Assembly (NCBI GenBank): GCA_965237675.1
Contig: OZ250150.1
Coordinates: 1,536,001 to 1,600,000, forward strand
Direction of reading: 5' to 3'
Source: Candidatus Latescibacterota bacterium
Lineage (GTDB): Bacteria > Latescibacterota > UBA2968 > GCA-2709665
Length of the DNA stretch: 64,000 bases
Under the pieces are notes generated by a model. That model was not told where the DNA came from. It made no database searches and saw nothing but the letters and a program-made list of their open reading frames with translations. Shown here in pieces: positions 3,820-53,538 of the stretch (position 1 is its first letter; each line of letters opens with the position of its first letter). Made by a program: the position numbers and the translations under genes.

Positions 3820-4190
3820 GGGAGCGCGGGTGTCCCGCCCGCGTGGCGCCGTCGTCTTTGCATTTGTAGGGGCAACCCTTGGGGTTGCCCTCTAGATAGC
3901 GAGGATATCGCTGTCTGAATCGCTGCAGTTAACACCCGGCAGTACGCTGTCCGTTGATTGATATGGGGTATCTGTAGGGGCGACCGGCCGGTCGCCCCTA
4001 CGCCTTGCTGCGCCCTATCTGATCCTGCCACGTCACGGCGCCGACATCCGTGAATTGATATCGCCAGGCCTTGTCGCAAACCGCCTTTAGCTGACTGCTG
4101 ATAGCTGACTGCTGATCGCTGATGGCTGGTGGCTGCGAGCGGCGTGGAGGGGTGGCCTTCTCACCTCTCCCGTCTTACTTCTTGCCGCTT
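3820..4190. repeat. REP mosaic plus GCTGAYN heptamer run
   Basis: GTAGGGGCAACCCTT..GGTTGCCC and GTAGGGGCGACCGG palindromes; AGCTGACTGCTGAT heptamers at 4089-4135. Confidence 0.8.
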
Positions 4191-9839: not shown

Positions 9840-12800
9840 CGAGATCCGCCGCGTAGCGCCGCTGTTGCATTTGTAGGGGCAACCCTTGTGGTTGCCCAGG
9901 TGATGGCGTTGATATCGCCCATTGATATAGCCAGGCCATATCGCTAACCGGCTTTAGCTGACCGCTGCAGGCTGATCGCTGACATCAGAGCTAAGGTGAA
10001 TTATTCGCAAAAAAGGTAGATTCGTTACTCCAAGTCATTGTATTATGGTTACGCAAATAACCTTATAGCAATGAATTTGGAAGAAACTACCGTGGGGGCT
10101 CAAGATAGTCATCACAGGATCCTTTTCTCAAGTCTATTCGGTGAAAAGTGAAGGGATTGATCATCATGGAGGACCTCTCCCCCCGGCCCCCTCTCCTGCA
10201 AGGAAAGGGGGAGTTGAACCAGGCGTTGTGCCAACACGGTTTTATATGAGCTCTGATTGAGCGGACCAACCACAATATTTCGCCGGGATTTTTTCAACAA
10301 TGGAAACGTCTTCAGCCAATCCAACGGTTCATTAACCGATCACGGTTCCCCCTTCCTCTCAGGAAGGGGGTTAGGGGGTAGGTCTCGCAGGTCTCGCCAG
10401 AGCTGTCGTTCTTCTTCTAACATGTCAGCCCGCAAACCTCACGCCGACTTCACTTTCTCGATTCACTCGGAAGCTGTTTCTGCTTCCTGAAACTGCAATC
10501 CGTGACAATTCATGAATTAATCAGATCTAAATTATTATTTTTCACGCCCTTTTTCTTGTACGCCCAAGAAAAAGGACCAAAAAGAACGGCGCCGTTCGGC
10601 ACGGGGCCGGTTTTTCCGCGAAACGTTTCAGGGGTAATAAAGGGAATTGGCTGCCCTGAGAGCCACTCAGGTGTACCAGTGCGATGGTGCTGGACGGATT
10701 AGCGCGGAAAAGCCCCGTCACCACCGCTGTTGCATTTTGCGACACCTGGAAGCGGGGGCGTAGCGCCGTCGTTTTATTTGTAGGGGCAACCCTTGTGGTT
10801 GCCCAGGTGATGGCGTTGATATCGCCCATTGATATAGCTAGGCCATATCGCTAACCGGCTTTAGCTGACCGCTGCAGGCTGATCGCTGACATCAGAGCTA
10901 AGGTGAATTATTCGCAAGAAAGGCAGTTTCGTTACTCCAAGTCATTGTATTATGGTTACGCAAATAACCTTATAGCAATGAATTTGGAAGAAACTACCGT
11001 GGGGGCTCAAGATAGTCATCACAGGATCCTTTTCTCAAGTCTTTAGCGAGGACCTCTCCCCCCGGCCCCCTCTCCTGCGAGGAGAGGGGGAGTTAAACCA
11101 GGCGTTGTGCCAACACGGTTTTATATGAGCTCTGATTGAGCGGACCAACCACAATATTTCGCCGGGATTTTTTCAACAATGGAAACGTCTTCAGCCAATC
11201 CAACGGTTCATTAACCGATCACGGTTCCCCCTTCCTCTCAGGAAGGGGGTTAGGGGGTAGGTCTCGCAGGTCTCGCCAGAGCTGTCGTTCTTCTTGTAAC
11301 ATGTCAGCCCGCAAACCTCACGCCGACTTCACTTTCTCGATTCACTCGGAAGCTGTTTCTGCTTCCTGATACCGCTATCCGTGACAATTCATGAATGAAT
11401 CAGATCTAAATTCTTGATTCTTATTTTTCCTCGCCCTTTTTCTTGTACGCCCAAGAAAAAGGGCCAAAAAGAACGGCGCCGCTCAAACGCCGCGGGGCTG
11501 CTTTTCCGCGAAACCCCTCAGTGGCGCAGACCAGCTTCGATGCCCTACGAGCGTTTGCGGAGTTCCCAGGCGACAGGCGTTGGACGGAATAGCGCGGAAA
11601 AACCCCCCACGCCACCGTTGTTGCATTTTGCGACACCTGGAAGCGCGGGTTCCCGCGCCGCCGTTGCAGTTTGTAGGGGCAACCCTTGTGGTTGCCCAGG
11701 TGATGGCGTTGATATCGCCCATTGATATCGCTAGGCCATATCGCTAACCGGCTTTAGCTGACCGCTGCAGGCGGATCGCTGACATCAGAGCTAAGCCTCT
11801 TTAATTCACACAAAAGGAAGTCTCCTTGCTCAAGTCATTGTATTCTGGCTTACTTAATTAACCTTATAACAATGAACCTGGAGCAACCTGGCGTGGAGGC
11901 TCAAGATAATCATCACAGAATCCTTTTCGCGAGTCTTTAGTGAGGACCTCTCCCCCCGGCCCCCTCTCCTGCGAGGAGAGGGGGAGTTGAACCAGGCGTT
12001 GTGCCAACACGGTTTTATATGAGCTCTGATTGAGCGGACCAACCACAATATTTCGCCTGGATTTTTTCAACAATGGAAACGTCTTCAGCCAATCCAACGG
12101 TTCATTAACCGATCGCAGTTCCCCCTTCCTCTCAGGAAGGGGGTTAGGGGGTAGGTCTCGCAGGTCTCGCCAGAGCTGTCGTTCTTCTTCTAACATGTCA
12201 GCCCGCAAACCTCACGCCGACTTCACTTTCTCGATTCACCCGGAAGCTGTTTCTGCTTCCTGAAACTGCAATCCGTGACAATTCATGAATTAATCAGATT
12301 TAAATGCTTGATTTTTCTTCGCCCTTTTTCTTGTACGCCCAAGAAAAAGGGCCAAAAAGAACGGCGCCGCTCAAACGCCGCGGGGCTGCTTTTCCGCGAA
12401 ACCCCTCAGTGGCGCAGACCAGCTTCGATGCCCTACGAGACCTTGCGGAATTTCCAGGCAATAGTGCTGGACGGAATAGCGCGGAAAAGCCCCGTCACCA
12501 CCACCGGGCGGGTTAGAGAGAAACGCGAGGGACCGGAAAAAAGAACGCCTCCCTCGCGTTCGGAAAGCAAAACGGGACTGGAACGCAAAGCCCGTCCGGA
12601 GGGCAACCAGAGCAGAGCGCGCTATTCCGTCCATCTCGGAGATCGGGTACCCGCCCTCGCTGGCAGGGCAACGGGTCGTGTGCATCCTGTGAGGAAATTC
12701 GCGCTGTGTATAAGTACGGCCCCGCGCCCAGCGGCGACTTTTAAAAGCGGTAAGAAGCAAGAGGCAAGAAGGTAGAAGGGTTAATAACTTTGTCATATGA

Positions 12801-13030
12801 AACCCTCTGAACCGGAGTCTCGCTAACTGGAAAATAGAAGTGGATCGCGAAAGAGGGCGCGTAACCGGTGGGTGGCGGCGTGGCCTTCTCACCTCTACCG
12901 TCTTACGTCTCACGGTTTCAAGGAACCCTCCGAAGGCAGGGAATTTGGGGAGATGTAGAATTGGATTCTGGTTTTCGCTCTTTGCTACAAGGTGTCTGCT
13001 GACCGCTAATAGCTGTTTTTTCTGATCGCT
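9840..13030. repeat. Large intergenic repeat mosaic (three ~900-bp tandem units plus a composite element)
   Basis: GTAGGGGCAACCCTTGTGGTTGCCC at 9873, 10780 and 11673 (periods 907 and 893); each unit has a DUF559 relic and a variable-loop core. Confidence 0.9.
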
Positions 13031-13054
13031 ATTTGTTGCTTTGGGGTTTCTCCA

Positions 13055-15523: not shown

Positions 15524-16930
15524 GAGCAACCCTCACGGCCGCTCCCCGGGAGCGCGGGCGTCTCGCCCGCATGGCGCCGACGTCGCATTTGTAGGGGCAA
15601 CCCTTGTGGTTGCCCGCATCACGACGCTGACATCCGTGATAATGATATCGCCAGGCCATATTGAAAGCCGGTTTTAGCTCACTGCTGATGGCTGACATCA
15701 GAGCCAAATTCTTAAATATTATTTTTCCTCGCCCTTTTTCTTGTACGCCCAAGAATCGGCTGGAAGCAAGAGGGAAGACGTGGGAAGGGTTGGTAACATT
15801 GTCGGATGACACCCCCGCACAATGGCTTGTCGAGCCGTTGAGGAAGCGTGTGTGAAGGTGGGGCAGACATTCCTGTCTGCCCATCTCGTGTTTACGCAAC
15901 ACTTCGTTCGACTCCCCCTCTCCTCGCAGGAGAGGGGGCCGGGGGGAGAGGTCCTTCTGCCGGAATGCAGACAGAAGAAAGGGTTGCGCCGACGTCAGCA
16001 TTTGTAGGGGCAACCCTTGTGGTTACCCGCGTCAGGGCGATGTTATCGGTAATGGTCTTCGCCAGGCCATATTGCAACGGACTCTCGCCGAGTTGAAGTT
16101 GACCGCTCATCTTCCGAAAGCCAGTCAGTTCTCGATCGCGAGCCCTGTCCGGAGGACCACCAGAGCAGAGCGCGCGGTTCCGTCCATCTCGGAGATCGGG
16201 TACCCGCCCTCGCAGGTAGGGCAACGGGTCGTGTGCATCCTGTGAGGGTGTTCGCGCTGTGTATATGGCAGGCTCCGCCTGCCTGTGCGTTGCCGCACGC
16301 AGACAGGCGCCTGGCGGCGACTTTTAAAAGCGGTAAGAAGCAAGAAGGTAGAAGGGTTAATAACTTTGTCATATGAAACCCTCTGAACCGGAGTCTCGCT
16401 AACTGGAAAATAGAAGTGGATCGCGAAAGAGGGCGCGTAACCGGTGGGTGGCGGCGTGGCCTTCTCACCTCTCCCGTCTTTCGTCTCACGGTTTCAAGGA
16501 ACCCTCCGGAGGCAGGGAATTTGAGGAGAGGTTGTGATTTTGGAGTAAAATTCTTATTTATTATTTTCTTCGCCCTTTTTCTTGTACGCCCAAGAAAAAG
16601 GGCCAAAAAGAACGGCGCCGCTCAAACGCCGCGGGGCTGCTTTTCCGCAAATCGCCTCAACAGTGTCGACAGGCTTTGGTGCCCTTTGTCCCTTCCATCC
16701 GTTCCTGAACCATGGTGGTGGACGGATTAGCGCGGAAAAGCCCCGTCACCACCACCGGGCGGGCGTGAGGCAGATCGGGAAGGACCGCCACGCGGATTGG
16801 CTTCGAACCGCAGGTGTCGCATTTGTAGGGGCAACCCTTGTGGTTACCCGCGTCAGGGCGATGTTATCGGTAATGGTCTTCGCCAGGCCATATTGCAACG
16901 GACTCTCGCCGGGTTTAAGCTGATTCCTGT
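15520..16930. repeat. Intergenic repeat mosaic between pth and hppA
   Basis: REP palindromes, B-type core 16166-16261, A-type core 16641-16739; modules shared with the other mosaics. Confidence 0.88.
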
Positions 16931-19049: not shown

Positions 19050-20200
19050 GGCCGGTTCGCAGGATTCCCTGGCGCCGCGTCGTCGTTGCATTTTGCAGGA
19101 GCAACCCTTGTGGTTGCCCGCATCAAGGCGCTGACATCCGTGATTATGATATCGCCAGACCATATTGCAAGCCGGTTTTAGCTGACCGCTGTCAGCTCGA
19201 CGTTGAAAAGCCAGTCGGTTCTCGATCGCGAGCCCTGTCCGGAGGACCACCAGAGCAGAGCGCGCGGTTCCGTCCAGGGCCGAGTACCGATGTTCTTCCG
19301 TGGTTGGCAGGGCAGAGGATCATGTGCATCTCGTGAGGGGATTCGCGCTGTGCATAAGTACGGCCCCGCGCCCAGCGGCGACTTTTGGTTCCTTTTGGTC
19401 GGTTCAAAAGGAACTCGCCGAAGGCAGGTAATTTGGGGAGAGGTTGTGATTTTGGAGTAAAATTCTTATTTATTATTTTTTACGCCCTTTTTCTTTCTCG
19501 CCCAAGAAAAAGGGCCAAAAAGAACGGCGCTGCTCAGACGCCGCAGGGCTGGTTTTTCCGCGAAACGCCTCAGTGGAGAAATCGTGAGACATTGCCCTGA
19601 GACCGCCTGAGCATACACGGGACAATAGTGTTGGACGGAATAGCGCGGAAAAACCCCCCACGCCACCACCGGGCGGGTTAGTGAAACGCGAAGGACCGGA
19701 AAAAAGAACATCTCCCTCGCGTTCCGAAAGCAAAATGGGACTGGACGGCAAAGCCCGTCTGGAGGATAACCAAAGCAGAGCGCGCGGTTCCGTCTCGCAC
19801 GGAGTACCCAATTTCTTCCGTGTTTGGCAGGGCACCGGCTTTGTTGCGTCCGCCGTCGAGATTCGCGCTGTGTATAAGTACGGCCCCGCGCCCAGCGGCG
19901 ACTTTTAAAAGCGGTAAGAAGCAAGAGGCAAGAAGGTAGAAGGGTTAATAACTTTGTCATATGAAACCCTCTGAACCGGAGTCTCGCTAACTGGAAAATA
20001 GAAGTGGATCGCGAAAGAGGGCGCGTAACCGGTGGGTGGCGGCGTGGCCTTCTCACCTCTCCCGTCTTTCGTCTCACGGTTTTAAGGAACCCTCCGGAGG
20101 CAGGGAATTTGGGGAGAGGTTGTGGTTTTGAATTTGTCTTTTGCTTATAGCTGACCGCTGTACACTGACTGCTGACCGCTGAAAGCTGTTTCCCATTCAC
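19050..20200. repeat. Intergenic repeat mosaic between hppA and rpsF
   Basis: B cores at 19256-19352 and 19776-19872, A core at 19554-19652; same layout as 12320-12950. Confidence 0.88.
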
Positions 20201-20914: not shown

Positions 20915-21820
20915 AGTGGAAAGAGGTAAGAAGTAAGAGGCAAGAGGTGTTGGTAACTTTGTCACATGAGACGTCCGCAACCGGACTCTCGCAATATTCA
21001 AAAAGAAGCGGATTACGAAAGGGGGCGCGAGACTGGTGGGTTGGGGTGTGGTCCTCTCACTTCTCTCGTCTTTCCTCTTACGGCTTTTTTTGGAACTGCG
21101 TTTCGGGCAGACACTGGCATTTCTACTCTCTTCATCCTTTTTTCTTTTTCCTCGCCCTTTTTCTTGTACGCCCAAGAAAAAGGGCCAAAAAGAACGGCGC
21201 CGCTCAAACGCCGCGGGGCTGCTTTTCCGCGAAACGCGTCGGTGGCGGTGAACGGAGGAGGTGGCCTAAGAGCCTCTAAAGAGTTCCTGTACGCAGGCGT
21301 GGGACGGATTGGCGCGGAAAAGCCCCATCTCCGCCACCGTGCGCGCGAGACGTTGACCGGTAAGGCCCTCCGAGCGGGTTTGCGATTGTACCGCTTTTCG
21401 CTGTCTGCAGCTTGCGGTTTTTTCCTTTGTGTTTTTGTGTGAGGCGGTGTTTTCGTGGGTACAGGCGGGCGACCGGCCGGTCGCCCCTACCAAAACCAGG
21501 TATCCGCGAATTGACATCGCCGGTCCGTATCGCTAACCCTCCCCCTCTCCCCGTGGGAGAGGGGGCCGGGGGGTGAGGGACTTGGGGCCGATGTGGATTG
21601 GCATCGCCAGGCCGTATGGCAATCTGCCTTTTGCTTTTCGTTCTTAGCTGACCGCTGATAGCTTTCTGCTGCTTTCGTCGATGCTGCTGCCCGCTACAAA
21701 TATATCGGGGTTAACTCCCCCTTTCCTTTAGGAGAGGGGGCCGGGGGGAGAGGTCCCGCTTTTTTTTGCCTTTTGTTGTAAGCTGACTGCTGACCGCTGA
21801 TAGCTGTTCGCTATATAATT
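20915..21820. repeat. Repeat mosaic between rpsR and rplI
   Basis: A core at 21223-21321; 21302-21590 is identical to 22668-22956. Confidence 0.88.
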
Positions 21821-21867
21821 AATGTAAAACGCCAGATGGCCATCGCGCCGAACGAAAGGGAACCACC

Positions 21868-22319: not shown

Positions 22320-23150
22320 TTGACGTCTCAGGTTTGGTTTTCGCTTCTCGCTGTATGGTTTTCGATTTTTGCTTCAAGCTGACTGCTGACCGCTGATAGC
22401 TGTTTCCAGGGAATAGCACGTCATCGGCATACAAAAGCAGTGGGGAAAGACGGATGGTGGGTCTTGTTCAAGGCCCATGAGACGTTTTTCCTCCTTTCTT
22501 TTTGTTTTTTATTCATTTACGCCCTTTTTCTTTCTCGCCAAAGAAAAAGGGCCAAAAAGAACGGCGCCGCTCAGACGCCGCGGGGCTGCTTTTCCGCGAA
22601 CCACCTCGGTGTCGGAACAGGCGTCTGTGCCCTACGTACCCATATGACCACACAGCGCTCCGGTGCTGGACGGATTGGCGCGGAAAAGCCCCATCTCCGC
22701 CACCGTGCGCGCGAGACGTTGACCGGTAAGGCCCTCCGAGCGGGTTTGCGATTGTACCGCTTTTCGCTGTCTGCAGCTTGCGGTTTTTTCCTTTGTGTTT
22801 TTGTGTGAGGCGGTGTTTTCGTGGGTACAGGCGGGCGACCGGCCGGTCGCCCCTACCAAAACCAGGTATCCGCGAATTGACATCGCCGGTCCGTATCGCT
22901 AACCCTCCCCCTCTCCCCGTGGGAGAGGGGGCCGGGGGGTGAGGGACTTGGGGCCGGGGGGAGAGGTCCCGCGCGGTCGTTGCATTTGTAGGGGCGACCG
23001 CTGGGTCGCCCGGTTCGTGGCGCGCATATCGCTGATTGACATCGCCATGCCATATCGCTAACCCTCCCCCTTTCCTTTAGGAGAGGGGGCCGGGGGGAGA
23101 GGTCGTGAATTTGGTTTTCGCTTTTGCTTCAAGCTGATTGCTGATTTCTT
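22320..23150. repeat. Repeat mosaic downstream of rplI
   Basis: A core at 22590-22687, REP palindromes, heptamers. Confidence 0.85.
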
Positions 23151-23876: not shown

Positions 23877-24177
23877 ATGCAGGTTCGAACGTTTTTAAGT
23901 CCGGGTTTGGCGTTTTTGCTGTCAGTTGGCGTTGTTGGCGTCGCGTCCGCACAGGAAGTCGCCCGCACGCGGGGTATTATGATTCGCGTCGACAAACCGG
24001 CTGCCAACGCGTGGGTGAAAATCGACGACAAGATCGAGATTCGCATCCTGGCTTTCGACGGTCTCCTCAATGGCGGTTTCCGGGTGTCGGTTGTCGATTC
24101 AAAGCTCGCTGACGACGATGTCGGTACCACTGCCGGCGGGTCGGCCGCCGCCGATGGATTCGTTTACTATAATATAA
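23877..24177 (+). pseudogene. 5' part (signal peptide) of large surface protein paralog 1, cut by IS1595
   Basis: Homologous to the N-terminus of 36463-41394; GGAGG SD; fuses in frame with 27341-31734 once the IS and one TSD are removed. Confidence 0.9.
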
Positions 24178-24329
24178 GGCACCTATATACTTAACTACCC
24201 GTCCATAACCCTTTAATTTATAACGGTTTAATAATTATTATAAGATGAATATTGTCTTTACTTAAAATAATTGTTATAATTGTTGTAAATTAAAGGGTTA
24301 TGGGGGTACCCTAGACTATAAATAAGTGA

Positions 24330-24359
24330 AAACCCTCGATCGGTCAGGATCGAGGGCTC
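24330..24359 (-). terminator. Terminator after the DUF2188 gene
   Basis: CCCTCGATC-6nt-GATCGAGGG hairpin followed by TTTT on the minus strand. Confidence 0.65.
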
Positions 24360-24383
24360 AGACAGGTCATCGTTGGTTGGGGT

Positions 24384-24605
24384 TTAACCACGGGGTGGAA
24401 ACGGGTCTTTCCCGTAGCTGTTTTTGGTTCCGAATTGCCCATTCTTCTTATGGATGATCAATTCGCTTTCAGAAACCTTAGCTATCATTCTGCCTATGCG
24501 AGCGGCTTCAGCCTGTGTTGTGGCATTGGAAATTGGTTCCGGTCGGCCAGCCTGCTTTACGGCCCAATCTCCATCATCGGGTACAACATGGATTGAATTT
24601 GCCAT
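24384..24605 (-). CDS. DUF2188 family protein (IS passenger)
   Basis: HVVP..GDWAVK..G...TQAEA...A....SEL.IH..NG....SYG.DPFPP.G. Confidence 0.85.
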   Translation of the reverse strand: MANSIHVVPDDGDWAVKQAGRPEPISNATTQAEAARIGRMIAKVSESELIIHKKNGQFGTKNSYGKDPFPPRG

Positions 24606-24681
24606 CGCGGATTCCTTCCACGATGACCTGTCGTTTGAAATATACTGATGAGGCTATGTTTAGTCAAGTTCCAGGGTGCGT

Positions 24682-25017
24682 CTAAGTCGCTTTGCCATCA
24701 AGAATTTCATCTATTCTATCCAATAATGGTTCGATTATTTCTCTATTTTCTTTAATCCAATATTCAGTATCTGTTAAATCTTCCCTGATTAATGAAACAT
24801 GATTTAAAATATCCTTCTTAATATCAGGAAATTTAGTACCTACGCTTCTCATAAAAATGCGAAGGAAAGAATACATTAAGAGATTTTCCAAATACATTTT
24901 TGCAATAACTGGTGAAGCGTTTGCCAAAACGGTCTCTTTGGCTATTTCTTCCATCATATTCCGAATTTCTTGAATAGAATATCTTCGTTTAAAACCGATT
25001 CGTGATTGTGTAGACAT
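24682..25017 (-). CDS. Hypothetical helical protein (IS passenger)
   Basis: 111-aa ORF with an AAGGAG SD in the AT-rich element interior. Confidence 0.6.
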   Translation of the reverse strand: MSTQSRIGFKRRYSIQEIRNMMEEIAKETVLANASPVIAKMYLENLLMYSFLRIFMRSVGTKFPDIKKDILNHVSLIREDLTDTEYWIKENREIIEPLLDRIDEILDGKAT

Positions 25018-25131
25018 AATTCTCCTTTTGCCTCCTCGAAAAAACCCCTTGTCTTCTGGATCTTCCTTATATATATTATTAATACACCTTATAGTTTATG
25101 ATAAACCCGTATTAATAATATATATGAGGAG

Positions 25132-26049
25132 GTGAATATGTCAACTGAAATATCGATATTTAAGCTGCACGAGATGTTCCCGGATGAAGCCTCGGCCGAA
25201 GCCTGGTTTGAGAAGTTACTTTGGCCGGAAGGTGTTCGTTGCTCAGGCTGTGGAAGTGAGGATATCCAGGCACGACCGACGAAAAAGCCTTTGCCTTATC
25301 GCTGCCGCAGTTGTCGGACAGATTTTTCGGTAAGGACTGGAACCTTACTGCACAGGTCACATCTACCCTTGCGGAAATGGGTTTTCGCCATTTACTTAAT
25401 AAGTCGCCCAAAGGGAATTCCTTCTACTCAGTTGGCACGTGATTTAGGCATAACGCAGAAAACAGCTTGGTTCTTGGGCCATCGAATACGACAGGCTTGT
25501 TTACAATTTGGACGGAAGTTTTTGGGAACGGTTGAAGTAGATGAAACTTTTGTAGGTGGGAAAAAATCAAATAAACATCGTATTAAAGGGCAAAAATTTA
25601 AGCGAGGAACTGCGGATAAAGTTCCCATAATTGGTGTTTTTGAAAGAGGGACGAAAAAGGTTCAAACAAAGGTCTTAGGTGATATGTACGGAGGAACATT
25701 ACGTAAACCGATATACGATTGGGTATATAAAGGAATGTCCGTTTATAGTGATGAAAAATTAGAATATAAGAAAATATCTGAAGACTATTATCACGCATTT
25801 GTCCGACACGGCGCAGGACAGTATGTTAAGGGTAAGGCGCATACCAACGGGTTAGAAAATTTCTGGAGTCTGTTCAAACGTGGGTATATGGGAACTTATC
25901 ATGTAATGAGCCCTAAACATCTTTGGAGATATGCGCGAGAGTTCACCGCCCGACATAACGCAAAACCCTTGGGCGTTTACGGATTTATGAAGAAACTAGT
26001 CCAGGGGATGAGAGGTCAGCGACTACAATACCAGGAGCTTATAGCATGA
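25132..26049 (+). CDS. IS1595 family DDE transposase
   Basis: Zn ribbon CSGC..CRSC, LARDLGITQKTAW, VEVDET, YSDE, HTNGLENFWS..KR...G.YH..S.KHL.RY..EF..RHN. Confidence 0.95.
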   Translation: MNMSTEISIFKLHEMFPDEASAEAWFEKLLWPEGVRCSGCGSEDIQARPTKKPLPYRCRSCRTDFSVRTGTLLHRSHLPLRKWVFAIYLISRPKGIPSTQLARDLGITQKTAWFLGHRIRQACLQFGRKFLGTVEVDETFVGGKKSNKHRIKGQKFKRGTADKVPIIGVFERGTKKVQTKVLGDMYGGTLRKPIYDWVYKGMSVYSDEKLEYKKISEDYYHAFVRHGAGQYVKGKAHTNGLENFWSLFKRGYMGTYHVMSPKHLWRYAREFTARHNAKPLGVYGFMKKLVQGMRGQRLQYQELIA

Positions 26050-26180
26050 AGAAAGAGAAGACATTTAAAACGAACCTCAGCCCTGAAGATGTTGGCCGGG
26101 CGATATTACAGCCGAATAAATTTGCGGCACCAAAAGGTACACGTCGAAAGAAAAAGAAGAAAAAAGTAAGGGTTAAGTAG
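26046..26180 (+). CDS. 44-aa basic peptide coupled to the transposase
   Basis: ATGA overlap with the transposase stop; MKKEKTFKTNLSPEDVGRAILQP...RRKKKKKKVRVK. Confidence 0.55.
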   Translation: MKKEKTFKTNLSPEDVGRAILQPNKFAAPKGTRRKKKKKKVRVK

Positions 26181-26384
26181 TTGGGTTAGATTTATTTTCT
26201 TGTGATTTTTTCTCTATCAGTTATATTCACAATTGCAAGCATCCAGGAGGTCGCTATGCCGGGTCTCCTGCCTAATATAATAGCCAATTTGTGGCGAATA
26301 AGCAGGGCTCACCCTCCTGTGATGCTTGCAAGGCCCGTCACCAATTAAAGTAGTACTCGCTCCGCAAGGGCGACAGGAGGAAAA

Positions 26385-26915
26385 ATGAACTGGCTTCGTA
26401 GGGAGGGGTATGTACCCTATCGTTTAGCGATAGGGTTTTTTGTGTTATTAAGCTATTCACAACAGATCAATGCAGAAGAAAAATCAGTAAAAGAAGAACC
26501 GTTCATAGTAAGAAAGGTCCGTTGGGGAATGAGTAGGAAACAAGTGTGGCTGTCTGAAGATTGGAAACTAGTCCATCAAGAATCTAATATTTTGATTTAC
26601 AAAGGTTCTGTCGGTGGCTATGAATGTCGCCTCAACTATCATTTTGTAGCGGGTAATTTAAAAAAAGTTAAATATAGTTTTTCCTATGTAACTATAGATT
26701 TTTATCGTCGTACGGTAACTCAACTTATTGCAAAGTATGGTCACCCAAAAACTAAATTTCACATAGGATTTCTATGGACGGTGAAAGATGAAACATTTAT
26801 TGGTATTGCGCACGAACCTGAATACCGTAAACCGAGTCCGATGATAGTATCGTATGAAAAAATAGACGAATCAAAAGTAAACGAAGACGTTCTCTTTGAT
26901 GAATTTGCATTTTAA
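26385..26915 (+). CDS. Hypothetical exported protein (IS passenger)
   Basis: AGGAGG SD, signal-like N-terminus, VRWGMS motif. Confidence 0.7.
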   Translation: MNWLRREGYVPYRLAIGFFVLLSYSQQINAEEKSVKEEPFIVRKVRWGMSRKQVWLSEDWKLVHQESNILIYKGSVGGYECRLNYHFVAGNLKKVKYSFSYVTIDFYRRTVTQLIAKYGHPKTKFHIGFLWTVKDETFIGIAHEPEYRKPSPMIVSYEKIDESKVNEDVLFDEFAF

Positions 26916-27160
26916 CATGAATATATGTGTTGATATTTTTTACCCAATTTACTTAATTCTTGATCTGAGTACCAACCTTCCTTTAATGCTACCGTTGGCC
27001 AATCTTTGATTGGAATTTCATTTTTCAGTTTTGTATAGAGTTCCTTTTCAAGTAGTTGCATCCTCTTAGGTGAGGTATGAGGGGCAGCTGTTTTTACCAT
27101 TGTCGCCAGAATTGGGAGACGGTATTTTGGGATGTACTTGACCGGTAAGGGAAGTCTCAT
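26912..27160 (-). CDS. Hypothetical protein (IS passenger)
   Basis: AAGGAG SD before MRLPLPVK; convergent with the 176-aa gene. Confidence 0.5.
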   Translation of the reverse strand: MRLPLPVKYIPKYRLPILATMVKTAAPHTSPKRMQLLEKELYTKLKNEIPIKDWPTVALKEGWYSDQELSKLGKKYQHIYSC

Positions 27161-27340
27161 GGTAAAGTCTCCTTTTATCGTTGTCATTTGTAGTTTCAAC
27201 CGTCGTGTGTCTGCACGGCGGTTGATTTATTGTGGGGTCATAAATAATATACTGATATGGGGGACAGGAGACAACCCTTATGTCAAGTTTCTACTAGGCT
27301 TATAGGCGCGGGTAATCAAGTATATAGGTGCTTAATATAA

Positions 27341-30300
27341 ATGTGCCCAATCCTGGTAATCTCCCAGGCGGAGTCGAGTTTGGCGACGGCGAGTCGTCAG
27401 GTGTCGACACGTTCAATGTTTCCATAGCCGTCGTCGCGCAGGGTACAGCCTTCGAGTCGGAAAACAGCCGTGCTGTGAAAGTTGTGGTCGACCTCGACGC
27501 GGCCACGGCCGGCAACGAGTTGAACAACCTGATGACGAACAAGAAGATCACCCCCGGTTCCTCGGGCTTCGGCGCCAGCAGGGTCGGCGACGGGGTGCGG
27601 TTCGGTATCGACGCCAATCGCCCGAGGCACGCCAACGTGTTCAAGTCCTTCTCCGTTGAAACAGAAGACCTGAGTGTCGATACGACCCGGGCGGGTCTGA
27701 TCGATCGGGTGAAGATCAGGAGTGGAGATGAAATTACCATCAGACTCGGTCTGAACACGGGCAGTGTGTTAAATGCAGGAGCAAACAGCATCCAGGTCGG
27801 TATTGTGGAGACAGACTCGGCATTTTCCACGGCGCCAGTTTCCTTTGAGCTTCGCCGAGACAAGCTGTACAGTGCGAATCTGCGGGATTCGGAGATCGTT
27901 GAGGAGGGCGATTTTGCCGATAACCAGCGGGTACGGGTCGAAGCCTATCTCGTGGATGCCGCCGGTAACCTGGGCGGCGCCTCAATGGGTGCTCGAACGG
28001 CTTCAGCCGTCAGCGCCCCGCATGGATTTCCCGACGGTTTCGATCCCAATGGTGTCGAGTGGATCGCGGACGCAACCCCGCCCGGGATTACGATCATCTA
28101 CCCCCATCCGGATCGCATGGAAGATCGGATCTCGGCGGCCGTCACACAGACGCTGTCGGGTTATTATCCCCTGCCCGGGGAGGCGCAGGATGTTCAGACC
28201 GACCGCAGGTTGAACCCGCTCGAGTTTGAAATCAGCGAAGTTCCGGACGCCATCAGGATCACCCATGGCGACAGCACGCACGGGTTTGGCAGTGGCGCTA
28301 TCGATGATGCAACCCCCACGGACGTCGACGAAGATATGGCTCCGACCGGCAACGATTCCACGGCCACGCTCAGTCTCCCGTGGAAATACGCCAAAGCGGG
28401 CGGTGTAAAGAAAGACCTGAAGATTGAGGTCTGGGACAGCCTTGGGAACACGTCTTCGATGGACCTTGCGGGCATCTGGTACGACGAGAAAGCGCCGGAA
28501 ATCGGCAATCTGTTTCCCTCCGACGCCACCGCGCCCAGGGACGTGGAAAACGACGACGAGCGCACCATCAACCTGGCCACCAGGGATCCGGTCTTCACGA
28601 TCGATGAAGCGTTGGATTCGCTGTCCGTCCGTTATATTGAGACCGGCGGTGGAGCCACGGCCATAAAGCAGAGTTTCGGCCAGGGCAACCCTCGCCTGAA
28701 GACCACCGGCGAACGGGTGTACTGGCCGGTGCACGATACGAACTTTGTAGAACGAAGTCGGTACGATTTGCAGATCCTGGCGATCGACCTTGCCGGTAAC
28801 GCCAGCGTGACCGACGGCGGGACGCTCACGTTCACCCGGGGCTTCCTGAACCCGAACGCCGACATCTTCAAGATCGTCGACATGCCGGATCAGCAGGGCG
28901 GGGTCGTTACCGGTCGGGATTTCTCGATGCGGATCTCCGTCCTGGACACCATGCTGACCCGCATCGAGGAAGCCGACGTTCGCGCGGCGACCTATCATCG
29001 GATTGCGTCGTTAGGCGTCATCGTTTCCGGAGACCAGGCCGACGCGCTTGCCGGCGTGAGCTTCAGCGGAATCGGCGTATCGGATGCGCCGGACTTTACT
29101 CTTCCCGCCGAGTTGGCGGCCGCGGGCATGGTTGCCAGGGCCGCCATTCTGGACGGCGAGGGATGGCACGCGGGCCAACGTGACGTCAAGTTCAAATCGT
29201 CAAAGCCGCTCAGCAATGTCACCGTTATGGCGGCAGAGCGATTCAAGGACCCCGCCACCGGGAGCTACTCCCTGAAGACCGTCGGGCAGCTTGATGTTCC
29301 CGTCGACGTCAGCGCCTCCGAGTTGTCGCGGTTTGTGGTAACGGCCATCGAGGGCCAGGCCACGTCCAGCAACGTCGTTGGCGGGTTTACCGTCCGGGTG
29401 GTTCCGGCCGATGAATTCGGCAACCCGAGTATGAAGATCGATCCAACGCCCGATTCCAGGACGTATGAATCGGTGGCCGTTACGTTCGCTTCCAATAACG
29501 GCGCGGTAAAGGTGCCCTTTGGCCGGCAGGAAGTTGCCGCCGGTGGGACCGATTTCGGGGCGGTGGCGGCCAACATGGACGGCAGTGCGGTGGTTTCCGT
29601 ACGGACGATCAGGGAAGACTTCATTACTGACGCGGACATCCACTTCGCCGCGGCCGATGGAACTGATAGGGATGATACCGCCGGCGCCCTCAGCGGTAGC
29701 GTGACAGTCAGTTTCGCGCCTGAAGGCGGTCCCGTACCGGATCCGGGCGCCCCGTCTGCTCCTGCATACATTGGGGTCCGGGACTACATGGGCGCGGACG
29801 GACAGGGCGACCAGGGCGGCCTGGTGATGATCAACTTCCCGTATTCCGCGCAGCACGACGCCGTGGTGGCCTACCAGATCCACAGGGAAATCGACAAGAC
29901 CGCCAGGTTGGATGATGAGGGCAACGTGATCGAGCTCGAAGTAGCCGTGAAGGAATGGGTGCCCTGGGCCAGCATCAGCTTCGGCGCCGATGATCTCGGC
30001 GGCAACGTGAAGGGCGACATGCAGAATGTGGTCATCCCGGCACTCGACAACGTATCCACCAACTGGGGCGTCGTGTCTGTGGGCAAGGCGGGAACCTCCG
30101 ATATGACCGCGGCCGGCAAGCGCGTGTTCACGGTGGAGAGCGTGCAGCAAACCCTCGAGTTGCCGGGTATGGCGCCCGACGCGGTTCTGACGGACGAGGA
30201 ACTGGCGGATCGGTTCAATGCTCCCGAAGACGACGTCAAGTCCATCATCGGCAATCGGAAGAACCTGGTCTTCGTCCCCGTCAATCCCGATGTGAGCGTG

Positions 30301-31734
30301 TTGATGGGCAACGCCTCGGTTCCGGCCGACATCCGGACGGCCGCGGGTAATCTCATGCTGTCCGATCGCACGGTCACCGAGGAGCCCGTCGCAGCCGTTG
30401 ACAACATCGCGCCTGCCGCGGTCACCGGCGCTTCCGGCGACGGCGCCGGAGGCGTTGTACTTCGGTGGACGGCTTCCGCCGATGACAGGATTGTGTCATA
30501 CATCCCCTATACCATATACAACAACGAGGACAGCAACATCCCGATTCTGGGTGTCAGCGGCTACAAGGTGATGAGGGGCGCCTCGGCCGACGACCTCGAG
30601 GAGATTGCCACCCTCGATCCGGGATCCGCGCAGTTCACGGACGACAACGTGCCGGACGGGGCCACCTCGCTGGTGTACCGGATTGACGCGTATGACGACA
30701 ACAACGTGGCGATGGGTGAACGGATCGCGGTCGACAACATTTCGGTCCGTGTGCGTTTCGTCGATGCCAACGGCGATCCGGTCTACCTCGTCAGGCTGCC
30801 GTCGCAGGGCGGCAACATGGAGGTTGACTTCGAAGACTTCGTCGCCTTTGCACAGGCCTTCAACAGCCGGAAGGGCGATGCCAACTACAATCCGCAGGCC
30901 GACGTCAACGACGACGGCTCGGTGGACTTCTCCGACTTCGTAACGGCGTCAGCTACCTTTGGTCTTACGGCCGTGGTTCCGGCAGGCAGCAAGCTGGCCA
31001 TTTCGCCGCAGCGCCCGGGCGTGAACGCCAATACGGAGATGACCCTCGAACTGACCAGCGAGACGGTGAAGGTTGGCGAGACGATCTCGGTGACGGTATC
31101 CATGGCCAACGCGAAACAGTTGAACGGCTTCGGTCTGGAACTGACGTATGACGCCGAGAAGTTCGAATTCGTCAGTGCCGTTCCCGCTGAAGACGATCTG
31201 TTGAACTCTCAGGGTGGCGAGACGCCGTTGTTCAAGAACTGGCCGGAAGAGGGCCGGGTCTCGGTGGTCAACGCCATTATCGACGCGGGTTCCGTGAGCG
31301 GCGAGGGTGCGCTTGTGACCTTCACGTTCAAGGTTCTGCGGGAGTTCGAGGACAACGCCCGGTTGGAGATCGCACAGGGCGTGGTATTCGATCCCGATCA
31401 GCTACAGAACCCGGTGGTGTCGCTCGGTGCGCTGGACGTGCAGAGCACGCCCACCGAGTTCGCGCTGCACCAGAACTTCCCGAACCCGTTCAATCCTCAA
31501 ACCAACATTCCGTACGACCTGGCGGAAAGCGGCGACGTGGTTCTGCGGATCTACAACCTGCTGGGCCAGGAGGTGCGCACGCTGGTGCGTGAGCGTCAGC
31601 CCGTCGGTCGCTACACGGTTCAGTGGAGCGGAATGGACGACCGTGGCGTCTCGGTTTCGAGTGGAATTTACTTCTATCAGGTCTCGGTTGCCGGTAAGTT
31701 CCAGGATGCCAGGCGGTTGACGTTGCTTAAATAA
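27341..31734 (+). pseudogene. 3' part of large surface protein paralog 1 (Ig-like, dockerin-like EF-hand, cohesin, FlgD-Ig C-terminus)
   Basis: Open frame; DFEDFVAF..ADVNDDGSVDFSDF, cohesin-like L.YDAEKFEF, QNFPNPFNP tail. Restored ORF is 1564 aa. Confidence 0.9.
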
Positions 31735-31849: not shown

Positions 31850-34000
31850 CCACCTCTCCCCAAATTCCCTGCCTCCGGGCGGGCGACAGGTCGTACGCGA
31901 GGGACCGCGGGGTGTGCATGGATGCTCTGGCCGATGTACGCACGACATCTCGCGCCGTTGTTGAAATTGTAGGGGCAACCCTTGTGGTTGCCCACGTTGT
32001 GATTTTGGAGTAAAATTCTTATTTATTAATTTTCACGCCCTTTTTCTTGTACGCCCAAGAATCGGCTGGAAGCAAGAGGGAAGACGTGGGAAGGGTTGGT
32101 AACATTGTCGGATGACACCCCCGCACAATGGCTTGTCGAGCCGTTGAGGAATCGTGTGTGAAGGTGGGGCAGACATTCCTGTCTGCCCTTCTCATTGTCC
32201 TTCTGCCGGAATGCAGACAGAAGAAAGGGTTGCGCCGCCGTCGCATTTGTAGGGGCAACCCTTGTGGTTGCCCACGTTGTGAATTTGGAGTAAAATTCTT
32301 ATTTATTATTTTTCACGCCCTTTTTCTTGTACGCCCAAGAAAAAGGGCCAAAAAGAACGGCGCCGCTCAAACGCCGCGGGGCTGCTTTTCCGCGAAACCC
32401 CTCAACAGTGTCGACAGGCTTTGGTGCCCTTCGTCCCTTCCATCCGTTCCTGAACCATGGCGTTGGACGGATTAGCGCGGAAAAACCCCGTCACCACCAC
32501 CGGGCGGCCGTGAGGCAGATCGGGAAGGACCGCCACGCGGTATGGCTTCGAACCGCAGGTGTCGTATTTTGCTACATCTGGAAGGGCGGGCGTAGCGCCG
32601 TCGTTGGAATTGTAGGGGCAACCCTTGTGGTTGCCCACGAAATGGCGCAGACATCGCTGGTCGACATCGCCAGGCCGCATCGCTAACCGATGTTAGCCAA
32701 TCGCTATACGCCCACAGCCGATCGCGGGACGTTGGTCGACGTACGGTATCTGTAGGGGCGACCGGCGGGTCGCCCTTACAAAAACGAAATATCTGTGAAT
32801 CTCTATCGCCGGTTCGTATCGCTAACCGCTGAATTTTAATTAAATTCTTATTTATTATTTTTCACGCCCTTTTTCTTGTACGCCCCAAGAAAAAGGGCCA
32901 AAAAGAACGGCGCCGCTCAAACGCCGCGGGGCTGCTTTTCCGCAAATCGCCTCAATAGTGTCGACAGGCTTTGGTGCCCTTTGTCCCTTCCATCCGTTCC
33001 TGAACCATGGTGGTGGACGGATTAGCGCGGAAAAGCCCCGTCACCCCAACCGGGCGGGCGTGAGGCAGATCGGGAAGGACCGCCACGCGGTATGGCTTCG
33101 AACCGCAGGTGTCGCATTTTGCGACATCTGGAAGCGCGGGCGTAGCGCCGTCGTTGCATTTGTAGGGGCGACCCTTGTGGTTGCCCCTGTCACGGTGCTG
33201 ACATCGTAACGGGATTTCTAAGGTTTAACGCTGACCGCTGTCAGCTCGTCATTGGAAAGCCAGTCGGTTCTCGATCGCGAGCCCTGTCCGGAGGACCACC
33301 AGAGCAGAGCGCGCTATTCCGTTCATCTCGGAGATCGGGTACCCGCCCTCGCTGGTAGGGCAACGGGTCGTGTGCATCCTGTGAGGGTGTTCGCGCTGTG
33401 CATAAGTACGGCCCCGCGCCCAGCGGCGACTTTTAAAAGCGGTAAGAAGCAAGAGGCAAGAAGGGAAAAGGGTTAGTAACTTTGTCATATGAAACCCTCT
33501 GAACCGGAGTCTCGCTAACTGGAAAATAGAAGTGGATCGCGAAAGAGGGCGCGTAACCGGTGGGCGGCGGAGTGGCCTTCTCACCTCTACCGTCTTACGT
33601 CTCACGGTTTCAAGGAACCCTCCGGAGGCAAGGAATTTGGGGAGAGGTTGTGATTTTGGAGTTAAATTCTTATTTATTAATTTTCACGCCCTTTTTCTTG
33701 TACGCCCAAGAAAAAGGGCCAAAAAGAACGGCGCCGCTCAAACGCCGCGGGGCTGCTTTTCCGCGAAACCCCTCAACAGTGTCGACAGGCTTTGGTGCCC
33801 TTCGTCCCTTCCATCCGTTCCTGAACCATGGCGTTGGACGGATTAGCGCGGAAAAGCCCCGTCACCACCACCGGGCGGCCGAGGGATTAAACTTGAGGGG
33901 CCACAAGGCGGGCGGTTCGCGAACCGCCCCTACGAAAACCTGACATCCGCGATATCGATGTCGCCAGGCCGGTATCGCTAACCCTCCCCCTCTCCTCGCA
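31850..34000. repeat. Repeat mosaic
   Basis: A cores at 32386-32484, 32936-33034 and 33757-33855; B core at 33305-33400; several REP palindromes. Confidence 0.88.
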
Positions 34001-34400: not shown

Positions 34401-34781
34401 ATGAAAAAATCCCGGCGAAATATCGTGATTGGTCAGCCTGTTGCGCTCGACAAAGTGAAGTTGGCGGGAAGTTTGCGGGCTCACATGACAGAAGAAGAAA
34501 AACAGCTCTGGCAGCACCTGCGTGCGAATCGGCTTGATGGCTTTCACTTTCGACGGCAACAAATCATCGATGGCTTTATTGTCGATTTCTACTGTCATTC
34601 GGTCGGTTTGGTAATTGAAGTCGACGGCGAGGTTCACCAGAATCAGGTGGCTTATGATGCAAAACGAGATGGTATTCTTACAGCGCGAGGATTACGAGTG
34701 ATGCGTATTTCGAATGTTGAAATCCGCACGAATTTGGGTGGCGTTCTCCAATCAATCAGAGCTTATATAAAACAGTGTTAA
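34401..34781 (+). CDS. DUF559 (Vsr-like) endonuclease-domain protein
   Basis: LR.HMTEEE..LW..LR..L.G..FRRQ.II..FIVDFYC....LVIEVDG..H.......D..RD..L...G.RV.RI.N. Confidence 0.92.
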   Translation: MKKSRRNIVIGQPVALDKVKLAGSLRAHMTEEEKQLWQHLRANRLDGFHFRRQQIIDGFIVDFYCHSVGLVIEVDGEVHQNQVAYDAKRDGILTARGLRVMRISNVEIRTNLGGVLQSIRAYIKQC

Positions 34782-35126
34782 CGCGCCGCTTAGTTCAGCT
34801 CCCCCTCTCCTCGCAGGAGAGGGGGCTGGGGGGAGAGGTCTCACAGTGTTAACGCGCCGCTTAGTTCAGCTCCCCCTCTCCTCGCAGGAGAGGGGGCTGG
34901 GGGGAGAGGTCTCACAGTGTTAACGCGCCGCTTAGTTCAACTCCCCCTCTCCTCGCAGGAGAGGGGGCTGGGGGGAGAGGTCTCATAGTGTTAACGCGCC
35001 GCTTAGTTCAACTCCCCCTCTCCTCGCAGGAGAGGGGGCTGGGGGGAGAGGTCTCACAGTGTTAACGCAACGCTTAGTTCAGCTCCCCCTCTCCTCGCAG
35101 GAGAGGGGGCTGGGGGGAAAGATCTC
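34772..35126 (+). repeat. 5 x 71-bp tandem palindromic repeat downstream of DUF559
   Basis: Units start at 34772, 34843, 34914, 34985 and 35056; each has CCCCCTCTCCTCGCAGGAGAGGGGG. Confidence 0.95.
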
Positions 35127-36031: not shown

Positions 36032-36462
36032 TAGGAACCTGTTTGACGCCATAAATGGCGGTCGAAGGGCGGAATTGGCCGAATTCACGGCTGTTTTCAT
36101 CGACTATCGGAACCGGGTTGTTGAAATCTCATCACACAAAAGTAACGCGTCAACTGTGCTATCTCTGGCATGTGGGAGACGGAGGGGGTGGCTTTCGTGC
36201 ATTTAAAAGGAGGTGTTACAGGACCGATTGCTTACACGGGTTCAACCTAAATCGATAGTCACACTTAAGTTGTTGCAGGCCAGGCATTTTGAATTTTCCG
36301 ACAGAAGGGAGGAACGCCATTACAGCTAAATATTACAACTCTTCGGACTACAGGCATCCCCCCCGCGAGGTGCCAGAGTTGTTAAAGAGGTTGCTTTACG
36401 GCGCAGCAAGGCAGGTTTACGGTAGGTTTTTCGAAGCGTCCTGTTTCATAAGGAGGTTGGTA

Positions 36463-43530: not shown

Positions 43531-44029
43531 ACCGGTTCCTCGCGGCCACCTGTCGACCGCCCGGTTGTGGAGTAGGGGGTGTCTATCGCCCTCTAACGTG
43601 TTTAACCGTACCTGCGCCCGGTGGCGAAGTTTGGGGGTTTGCGGCCCCACCGGTTCTCCCGTCGACCGCCCGGTTGTGGAGTGGGGGGTTTTTCCGTGCT
43701 GATCCGTCCAGCAGTGTCGTCTGGTTGATACTCGGGGGGTCTCAGGGCAATGTCTCACGATTTCTCTACGAAGGAGATTCGCGGAAAAACCGGCCCCGTG
43801 CCGAACGGCGCCGTTCTTTTTGGTCCTTTTTCTTGGGCGTACAAGAAAAAGGACGGAGAGAGGAAAAAAGCACGAAGTATAAGGAAGCGTGTGTGAAGGT
43901 GGGGCAGACATTCCTGTCTGCCCATCTCGTGTTTACGCAACACTTCGTTCGACTCCCCCTCTCCTCGCAGGAGAGGGGGCCGGGGGGAGCGGTCCTTCTG
44001 CCGGAATGCAGACAGAAGAAAGGCTTGCG

Positions 44030-46156: not shown

Positions 46157-46208
46157 CGAAGGCGCTGGACGGCGCCTGATGCCGGACCTCGCAGTGTTCA
46201 GATCACCC

Positions 46209-47078: not shown

Positions 47079-47091
47079 TAGGAGGCGTTCC

Positions 47092-53299: not shown

Positions 53300-53399
53300 T
53301 TACAGCAATCCTCCAAAGTCTTTCCATGGGTTTCAATCAGGTTTTAATCGCAGTTAATCATAGTCCATCACAGTAATCATAGTTAATCATAGTTAGTGG

Positions 53400-53518: not shown

Positions 53519-53538
53519 GATAACATCACACCCTAGCA

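Follow-up and report, generated by a model that had tools for sequence, protein, structure and literature searches.

The locus and its repeat units

The stretch of DNA analysed here, called the window in the following, has a length of 64,000 nucleotides and corresponds to G000:C1:1536001-1600000 in the 5.6-Mb genome (58% G+C) of a Candidatus Latescibacterota bacterium. The genes in its part from 9.8-23 kb are housekeeping genes, i.e., ispE, a tRNA gene, the L25 gene, pth, a H+-pyrophosphatase gene, rpsF, rpsR and rplI, all of which are single-copy, and every intergenic region there is filled end to end by modules that are present in 15-70 copies. The subject of this study is one of these modules, a non-coding unit of ~110 bases that is closed by a stem, is followed by a terminator-like hairpin and is found in tens of copies per genome. 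It exists in two forms, A and B, which are homologous, self-contained sister subfamilies of one family. A preliminary description of the window had located five B units, had noticed that they contain the core of the A units in inverted orientation and within different closing stems, and had proposed that the pairing is under selection and that A and B might form the two ends of one element or act as its two guides.

A profile hidden Markov model (HMM) was built from 35 units defined by regular expressions and used for nhmmer searches of the genome (E up to 1e-3). This resulted in 94 matches, 19 of which lie in the window (14 A and 5 B units), the B units being all inverted relative to the 14 A units. 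Together with the hundreds of matches carried in total by related genomes this shows that the repeat lies far beyond chance. A division of 91 units of the genome yielded 73 A and 18 B units, the A units being distributed over both genome strands (41 plus, 32 minus). The core common to both subfamilies reads CGCGAA - ~28 nt - TGCCCT - ~32-34 nt - GGACGGA - 4 nt - CGCG. Alignments show that this core is closed in A units by GGGGC(TG)CTTTTCCGCG / CGCGGAAAAGCCCC or by the variant GGTTTTT / AAAAACC and in B units by GCAYAGCGCG / CGCGCTCTGC plus outer pairs, as had been described. The two variable segments between the motifs are fixed in length (87 of 110 A units have segments of 28 and 34 nt), and their sequences fall into discrete, very different alleles. 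In Rfam no family was found at the gathering threshold; the 64-kb window gives only a tRNA, and for positions 12250-13050 the best E-values of 0.47-8.9 all belong to hits far below the gathering scores. A coding role was rejected as well, as the minus-strand open reading frames (ORFs) of 264 and 350 amino acids that run over the composites described below translate into Arg-rich, low-complexity strings.

On the inferred functional strand, all complete elements share one layout, in which the unit is followed by a short GC hairpin with a T-run (H2), by a long A/T-rich hairpin (H1) and by the motif GCCGAAGGCA. At the locus studied in most detail an A element on the minus strand and a B element on the plus strand stand with their 5' sides towards each other. 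H1 of the A element (GCCCTTTTTCTTG / CAAGAAAAAGGGC; 12321-12352) was read directly and folds as a stem of 13 bp. It is adjoined at 12353-12381 by the terminator-like H2 with its T-run (GCGGCGTTTGAGCGGCGCCGT TCTTTTT), which was recognised in a consensus scan and immediately follows the A unit when the inferred functional strand is read 5' to 3'. The A unit itself (12381-12496; nhmmer, stem statistics) carries the closing stem GGGGCTGCTTTTCCGCG/CGCGGAAAAGCCCC round CGCGAA-N28-TGCCCT-N34-GGACGGA-N4-CGCG in plus-strand spelling, and its core as matched by the regular expression spans 12395-12483. The spacer between the two elements (12523-12598) contains two hairpins (AACGCGAGGGA/TCCCTCGCGTT and ACGGGAC/GCCCGTC, direct reading), has ~7-8 BLAST copies genome-wide and includes a minus-strand terminator-like site at 12569-12543 in the consensus scan. 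It is followed by the B unit (12605-12712; nhmmer, alignments), which reads CGCG-N4-TCCGTCC-N32-AGGGCA-N27-TTCGCG on the plus strand and is closed by outer pairs and by CAGAGCGCG/CGCGCTGTG, two arms that by direct reading pair at 8 of 9 positions and leave one G.G mismatch. Alignment with A elements and with elements of the sister family identifies the H2 analogue of B (CCGC gccca GCGG, then TTTT) at 12722-12742. Another repeat module (GGTAAGAAGCAAGAGGCAAGAAGG ... TAACTTTGTCATATGA ...) is inserted into H1 of B at 12743-12919, as seen by comparison with an uninterrupted B tail at 19358-19442, and the remnant 3' half of H1 with the end motif CCGAAGGCAGGGAATTTGGGGAGA lies at 12920-12952 (plus strand, direct reading).

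The B element to which this uninterrupted tail belongs (19249-19442, plus strand) consists of the unit (19249-19356, nhmmer), the H2 analogue, TTTT, H1 formed by GGTTCCTTTTG/CAAAAGGAAC, and GCCGAAGGCA. A second composite lies next to it, with an A element on the minus strand at 19484-19659 (H1, H2 with T-run and the A unit 19546-19659; nhmmer, alignment, consensus scan) and a B unit on the plus strand at 19774-19876 (nhmmer, alignment). The nhmmer search places the two remaining B units on the plus strand at 16159-16265, inside a 498-nt block that is missing from a paralogous site, and at 33298-33404. The remaining A units comprise one on the minus strand at 10603-10719, seven with the core written on the plus strand (11493-11608, 16632-16747, 21214-21329, 22581-22694, 32377-32492, 32927-33042, 33748-33863) and four with the core written on the minus strand (43683-43797, 44400-44515, 44752-44864, 57111-57225).

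Closing stem, interior and strand

A flush alignment of 104 distinct units, taken from the window and other genomes, was used to score pairing over the 12 pairs of the closing stem in comparison to 500 shuffles. In the real units 85.0% of the cells pair compared to 65.7 +/- 0.9% in the shuffled ones, and the covariation score amounts to 0.427 compared to 0.140; for both measures 0 of 500 shuffles reach the observed value. Sliding the register reduces pairing to 31-64%. The relatives contributing to this set are not independent of each other, MAFFT alignments of the variable parts are unreliable, and most of the two-sided changes go back to the single split between A and B, so that the number of independent events is small. 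Separate compensations occur within A (CACG/CGTG and CGTG/CACG) and within B (CATGG/CCCTG). Moreover, the exchange of GCTTTT/AAAAGC for GGTTTTT/AAAAACC among A units, noticed before, is real, the outer pair 5-112 being CG in 40, GC in 38 and UA in 15 units. The stem has a length of 11-15 bp, and its sequence differs between A and B.

The proposal that pairing is selected is thus supported for the outer closing stem but not for the interior, for which no conserved fold was found. On neither strand did the interiors of 84 units fold better than their dinucleotide shuffles (mean z -0.08 and -0.23), RNAalifold predicted nothing beyond the outer stem, and the covariation analysis of 85 length-matched A units gave no run of nested covarying interior columns. 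Similarly, no partner for the central motif TGCCCT is enriched, GGGC being present in 30 of 163 second segments compared to a shuffled mean of 34. In the unfolded interior of ~85 nt, three invariant motifs are set at fixed distances, and the two segments that separate them vary in sequence but not in length.

The mismatches left in the stem are distributed asymmetrically. Read in the orientation CGCGAA..GGACGGA, 166 distinct units contain 39 A.C mismatches compared to 8 G.T, scattered over many alleles; on the complementary strand the same positions read as 39 G.U/G.T wobbles compared to 8 A.C. A mutation bias is an unlikely cause of this asymmetry, since units lie on both genome strands and A units show no replichore bias (33 vs. 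30). The stem therefore seems to matter in one single strand, i.e., CGCG-N4-TCCGTCC...AGGGCA...TTCGCG, and both the wobble asymmetry and the tail described below point to the strand reading CCGTCC..AGGGCA..TTCGCG as the functional one.

A terminator-like tail

For the 85 units, out of 91, that could be parsed, the sequence behind the unit was scanned for a T-run and for a hairpin with a folding energy of -7 kcal/mol or below. On the inferred strand, 62 of 68 A units are followed by a T-run at fixed offset, 60 of them with a hairpin, and so are 16 of 17 B units, nine of them with a hairpin and 12 of them at offset 35. On the opposite side a T-run is found at 15 of 68 A units (two with a hairpin) and at six of 17 B units (three with a hairpin). 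A consensus terminator scan places its sites at the same positions as these fixed-offset T-runs. The whole A element measures ~215 nt and folds with z = -3.07, and A and B each have their own tail of H2, T-run and H1.

The same layout (unit, H2, T-run, H1, GCCGAAGGCA) was found on the inferred strand in three genomes of the sister family f2. Two-sided changes in H2 and H1 occur at the pairs 5-17 (CG in nine, UA in four sequences), 33-62 (CG in nine, UA in five) and 41-54 (UA in ten, GC in three), and the motif behind H1 is kept in 14 of 14 aligned elements; these counts refer to a subset alignment of 14 sequences, the register of H1 having been shifted by MAFFT in the alignment of all lineages. 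With its GC hairpin and T-run at fixed offset the tail resembles Rho-independent terminators. It differs from these in being part of a repeat module, the orientation of A is unrelated to the neighbouring genes, and termination is here predicted from sequence.

Arrangement of A and B units

The two composites (12290-12970 and 19453-20140) are 91% identical overall, and alignment columns 420-672 contain four differences by our own count from the conservation line. Both composites and both hairpins named in the preliminary description are present. The "different inserts" reported for them correspond to real differences, but these are located in the variable segments inside the units, with 14 of 40 columns identical in the A interior and 26 of 56 in the B interior. 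The geometry with two hairpins between the facing units exists in both composites of the window, but was found upstream of only two of 17 listed B units, i.e., the two in the window.

Adjacency of A and B in the genome is non-random, as had been put forward for checking: 16 of 18 B units have an A unit within 1 kb, and the members of all 19 neighbouring A-B pairs lie on opposite strands. In 12 of these pairs the units are convergent in the 5'-to-5' arrangement of the composites, at distances of 223-458 nt, and in seven they are divergent, i.e., tail-to-tail. All seven A-A neighbour pairs lie on the same strand. Read on the inferred functional strand, A runs leftward and B rightward in the composites, so that the tails point outward. 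Possible causes of the strict opposite-strand rule are the recombinational loss of direct-repeat pairs and a common polarity imposed by the B tail. According to crude gene calls based on a heuristic for G+C at third codon positions, A orientation is unrelated to genes (39 vs. 34), and 16 of 18 B elements point to the start of the gene downstream of them. The composites contain neither a cargo gene nor a target-site duplication.

Turnover and recombination

For 30 of 89 loci in relatives both flanks of the unit are colinear in the genome studied here (28 selected by rule, two added), and at these orthologous sites G000 is occupied in 11 cases and empty in 19. At the occupied sites, the segments are either ~100% identical (four loci, L018, L033, L046 and L049, with six unit comparisons) or 51-67% identical (seven loci), with nothing in between. 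This bimodal distribution points to replacement rather than to gradual drift. Three of the four loci with the same allele lie in regions that are 91-99% identical overall and are therefore little informative. At the fourth, L046, identity amounts to ~85% in the flanking high-scoring segment pairs (HSPs) and the remaining spacer can hardly be aligned, yet the unit with H2 and T-run differs at only three of 134 columns. In a further comparison, of G000:C1:1978069-1979589 with L033, the repeat spacer is ~99% identical and the flanking coding DNA ~90-95%, which may be due to a tract of recent recombination or to constraint acting on the spacer as a whole.

Empty sites in relatives had been suggested as a way to define the ends of the element. 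Across species the spacers are too diverged for exact boundaries, but one very close pair of genomes, with a spacer otherwise ~99% identical, gives a clean presence/absence of an A element. This 187-nt indel runs from inside H1 to just past the unit and has TTT at both junctions. Near-identical genomes differ by large module-sized indels. Furthermore, paralogous empty sites within G000 reveal blocks of 280-500 nt inserted into other repeats; one composite block of ~500 nt is bounded by an 8-9-bp direct repeat, and the other four junctions inspected show none.

Recombination is visible in several units. Two chimeric loci have lost everything between an A and an inverted B unit, which are now fused, in one of the loci at a CAGCC microhomology; these chimeras (G000:C1:219744-219894 and 2764893-2765105) are deletion derivatives of A/B composites, with an A start and an inverted B end or the reverse. 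In the A unit beginning at 19546 the 5' part is derived from one allele and the 3' part from the allele of the unit at 12381, and one locus has H2 and the T-run without a unit. The spacer between rpsR and rplI, as extracted from 11 genomes of the genus, varies from 210 to 1119 nt and contains units in four of them, i.e., A in G000, A plus B in one relative and B alone in two, with neither in the other seven.

Distribution

An exact-pattern scan over one genome per species detected at least 89 loci, most of them in records titled Candidatus Latescibacterota; among the 89 matches listed, 13 without profile support are chance matches in other phyla. A covariance model (R1), the E-values of which are rough, was used for the wider search and detected the family in 46 of 53 genomes of the order. 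In a phylum-wide sample it was found in 17 of 17 genomes of the family f1 and in 25 of 30 of f2, and under stricter filters in 0 of 93 searched genomes of 12 other families. Among the genomes searched, the repeat family is confined to one bacterial order, with the number of units per genome ranging from one to at least 73. Phage and plasmid collections contained no copy, and two matches to the pattern in viral contigs were rejected by the covariance model. Among the matches listed for a literature search with "Latescibacter" and "repeat", no paper is titled on dispersed DNA repeats in this phylum.

Interpretation

The analysis demonstrates the family and its taxonomic range, the covariation of its stem, the asymmetry between the strands, a tail with terminator-like layout and the turnover of units. 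The favoured reading, held with moderate confidence, is that of a modular dispersed non-coding intergenic repeat of the miniature inverted-repeat transposable element (MITE), repetitive extragenic palindrome (REP)/REP doublet (REPIN) or mosaic-element type, with two sister subfamilies and with turnover and recombination. The modules would be gained, lost and nested into other hairpin repeats, and they would recombine by ectopic recombination and microhomology, resulting in mosaics such as the two near-identical composites. The closing stem would matter in the single-stranded form of one strand, be it single-stranded DNA or RNA, and an A/B composite would represent two independent homologous elements set 5'-to-5'. 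The elements may spread as selfish or neutral DNA, helped by a putative trans-acting activity.

Several observations weigh against this interpretation. No mobilising enzyme was identified: the three Y1-transposase genes of the genome, which resemble REP-associated tyrosine transposase (RAYT) genes, are flanked by other hairpins, and the four intervals between convergent units that were inspected contain ordinary genes and one unrelated DDE transposase, a search that was not exhaustive. There is no consistent target-site duplication, with the single 8-9-bp repeat and none at four other junctions. Moreover, genomes of two families share the core motifs, their spacing and the terminator layout, and at L046 the unit, H2 and T-run are far better conserved than their ~85% identical flanks. 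The orientation of B towards the start of the downstream gene, within the accuracy of the crude gene calls, and the fact that neighbouring A and B units never lie on the same strand likewise look like signs of a function rather than of inert DNA.

As a dispersed repeat, the family is a well-defined, high-copy and structured one that persists across a whole bacterial order, and it is distinctive in its conserved asymmetric core, its built-in terminator-like hairpins and its discrete allele lineages. It also occupies a spacer inside the rpsF-rpsR-rplI ribosomal-protein cluster. The consequences are that such repeats affect operon structure predictions and break short-read assemblies, and that they offer a test bed for the persistence of sequence populations.

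Tentatively, the units might instead be transcribed as small RNAs of ~150-170 nt, with a short leader in front of the stem-closed unit and H2 as terminator. A protein would bind the scaffold formed by the stem and the three motifs, the segments would give specificity in the manner of guide RNAs or of small RNA paralogues, and the family would have spread by duplication. It is doubtful that the units are the genes of a lineage-specific programmable guide-like RNA class, with 10-90 members per genome, exchangeable segments of ~28 and 34 nt, duplication and segment swapping, and with A and B as scaffold variants. If true, the small RNA explanation would add a new multi-member guide-like RNA class. 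In 60 of 68 A units a hairpin and U-run directly follow the unit on the strand that tolerates wobbles, so that a predicted intrinsic terminator is present at the 3' end at consensus level; throughout the order, the layout of the tail is kept and its hairpins are maintained by compensatory changes. Moreover, the high identity between G000 and L046 begins ~25 nt before the stem and stops at the T-run, an unfolded interior would be accessible, and fixed segment lengths (28/34 nt in 87/110 A units) with discrete alleles are consistent with exchangeable specificity. A TATACC-like box, weakly conserved and seen by eye only, precedes the stem by ~30 nt in G000 and in one genome of the sister family.

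However, turnover accounts better than in-place function for the observations that the allele differs (51-67% identity) at seven of eight moderately diverged occupied sites and that 19 of 30 sites have no unit. At one locus, H2 and the T-run are present without a unit. There is no clear promoter, and a sigma-70 scan finds none at the units. Two RNA runs (of 21 listed, each with 6% of the sampled words) gave only contigs from relatives, some of 9-13 kb with repeat modules and a diverged pyrophosphatase gene, and such contigs cannot show transcription, strand or ends. No long complementary target was found in the own genome, which offers only 15-17-mers at chance level, and complementary 10-mers in the rRNA operon show no excess (27 compared to a shuffled mean of 19.9 and maximum of 33). 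Genes for CsrA and for Ro (TROVE) proteins are absent from the genome. A role as CsrA sponge, considered in view of the GGA motifs (ACAGGAUG in B units), was rejected, since the genome lacks a CsrA gene and the motif belongs to the strand that is not favoured, and a Y-RNA was rejected in the absence of a TROVE/Ro gene.

Archaeal box C/D small RNAs are guide-RNA scaffolds with two variable segments. The units resemble them, in the way they would work only, in the terminal stem, the conserved boxes, the two variable segments and the tens of copies, but are longer and show no excess of rRNA complementarity. By eye, neither box C (RUGAUGA) nor box D (CUGA) is conserved in the unit listings, CUGA being present in some A units only. 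A box C/D-like guide for rRNA modification was therefore rejected on account of the missing boxes and the 10-mer counts.

It is improbable that the units are sites in duplex DNA for a DNA-binding protein, be it a nucleoid protein, a regulator or a recombinase, with the three motifs spaced by some three to four helical turns. In line with such sites are the presence of three short, invariant motifs separated by fixed lengths of free sequence and the orientation of B relative to the downstream gene (16/18). The compensatory stem and the asymmetry of A.C and G.T mismatches would however not be expected for duplex recognition, and A is oriented at random relative to genes.

Even less probable is a REPIN or REP population mobilised by one of the RAYT genes of the genome. 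REP-type repeats are described as high-copy and extragenic and as persisting long-term within a lineage, and REPINs as having inverted arms in which changes compensate each other, a spacer of conserved length but variable sequence, and tandem clusters that include flanks (PMC3116915; PMC3337134; 10.1101/2021.07.10.451892). The A/B units share with REPs, REPINs and bacterial interspersed mosaic elements the high copy number, the extragenic location, the arms that pair in single strands with compensatory changes and the length-conserved spacer; the tandem arrays that include flanks, such as the ~890-nt repeats at 9851-12149, resemble the REPIN clusters described in PMC3116915. Furthermore, the genome has three Y1_Tnp matches, one of them 2.6 kb before the window. 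However, the arms are not short palindromes of the REP type, the interior is asymmetric, neither palindromic nor folded, and contains three invariant motifs, so that only the outer 11-15 bp pair and no doublet hairpin of a REPIN is formed; TGCCCT has no enriched partner (GGGC count given above), and the hairpin with T-run is integral to the A/B module. The 500-nt flanks of each of the three genes contain other hairpins (GGGCAGACAGGAATGTCTGCCC, GAGGGCATCCTGCCCTC) and no A or B arms, i.e., no RAYT gene is flanked by the same repeat. The RAYT-like ORFs lie at G000:C1:1532779-1533420, 1677052-1677759 and 1781310-1782152, each with its own flanking hairpins GGGCAGACAGGAATGTCTGCCC or GAGGGCATCCTGCCCTC, and these hairpins share the hexamer TGCCCT/AGGGCA with the central motif of the A/B core.

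Finally, the idea that A and B mark the ends of a single mobile element or serve as its two guides, which the close and always inverted neighbourhood of 16 of 18 B units with A and the 12 of 19 facing pairs at 223-458 nt would fit, is hardly credible, as 73 A units stand against 18 B units and most A units are without B, seven of 19 pairs are divergent, each type has a complete tail that points outward in the facing 5'-to-5' pairs, no gene, cargo or target-site duplication lies at the composites, the rpsR-rplI spacers of relatives hold A alone, B alone, both or neither, and no target of the variable segments was found in the own genome or in the rRNA operon.

Relation to other small repeats

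Enterobacterial repetitive intergenic consensus (ERIC) sequences, also called intergenic repeat units (IRU), Correia/NEMIS elements, BOX and RUP are non-coding intergenic sequences of 100-300 nt with terminal inverted repeats and tens to hundreds of copies. BOX elements are modular (A/B/C), and MITE-like repeats are often co-transcribed and can carry promoters or terminators. The dispersed repeat described here is likewise small, intergenic, multi-copy, modular and ended by inverted repeats, and it has the properties of MITEs, i.e., terminal inverted repeats, small size, many copies and no coding capacity. It differs from MITE-like repeats in its two stem subtypes round one core and in the discrete alleles of the variable segments; moreover, no parent insertion sequence was found in the four intervals inspected, and a direct repeat of 8-9 bp was seen at one of the five junctions inspected. 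The attC sites of integrons are similar in being defined more by structure than by sequence and in folding from one strand. However, attC is an imperfect palindrome over its whole length, whereas A/B units pair in their outer arms only.

Other repeats and genes

Several other repeats share the intergenic regions. The ~180-nt module inserted into the first composite is present at 12743-12919, 19905-20085 and 20915-21100 and sits in the H1 hairpin of B elements; it also lies directly behind the rpsR stop codon and is conserved there in two relatives. A REP-like repeat of GTAG and a hairpin (GTAGGGGCAACCCTTGTGGTTGCCC) occurs in 12 copies, including 3850-3913, 9857-9920, 10764-10827, 15575-15638, 19079-19142 and 31953-32016, and a second REP-like variant, GTAGGGGCGGTTCGCGAACCGCCCCTAC, is found in the flanks of units elsewhere in the genome. 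Tandem arrays comprise the decamer AATCACAGTC at 46866-47098, 48912-49083 and 53336-53801, directly upstream of ORF starts (e.g., the ORF at 47092), a 102-nt repeat at 46117-46926 and a 71-nt repeat at 34769-35124. The latter is accompanied by 16 dispersed copies of the hairpin CCCCCTCTCCTCGCAGGAGAGGGGG followed by CCGGGGGGAGAGGT, which also occurs in the rpsR-rplI spacer of a relative.

Four matches to RVT_1 (G000:C1:4792506-4793171, 2685049-2685714, 3960074-3960724 and 521418-522083), two of them with an internal stop codon, were considered as reverse transcriptase partners of the units and rejected, as nothing links any of them to the units. Positions 24000-28000 of the window are low in G+C (41-46%) and include an ORF for an IS1595-family transposase at 25132-26049. 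Two giant proteins with cohesin and C-terminal secretion-sorting domains are encoded at 27328-31734 and 36289-41394, and a Pup-proteasome cluster at 54888-62577 comprises a proteasomal AAA ATPase, two genes of the Pup-ligase/deamidase family and a proteasome subunit. Finally, GCTGA units spaced ~10 nt apart (GCTGACCGCTGAAAGCTGTT) lie at 12990-13030, 20130-20190 and 21760-21860, just upstream of the starts of ispE, rpsF and rplI; their position is conserved in relatives (loci L094, L100 and L091), and they may be promoter or leader elements.

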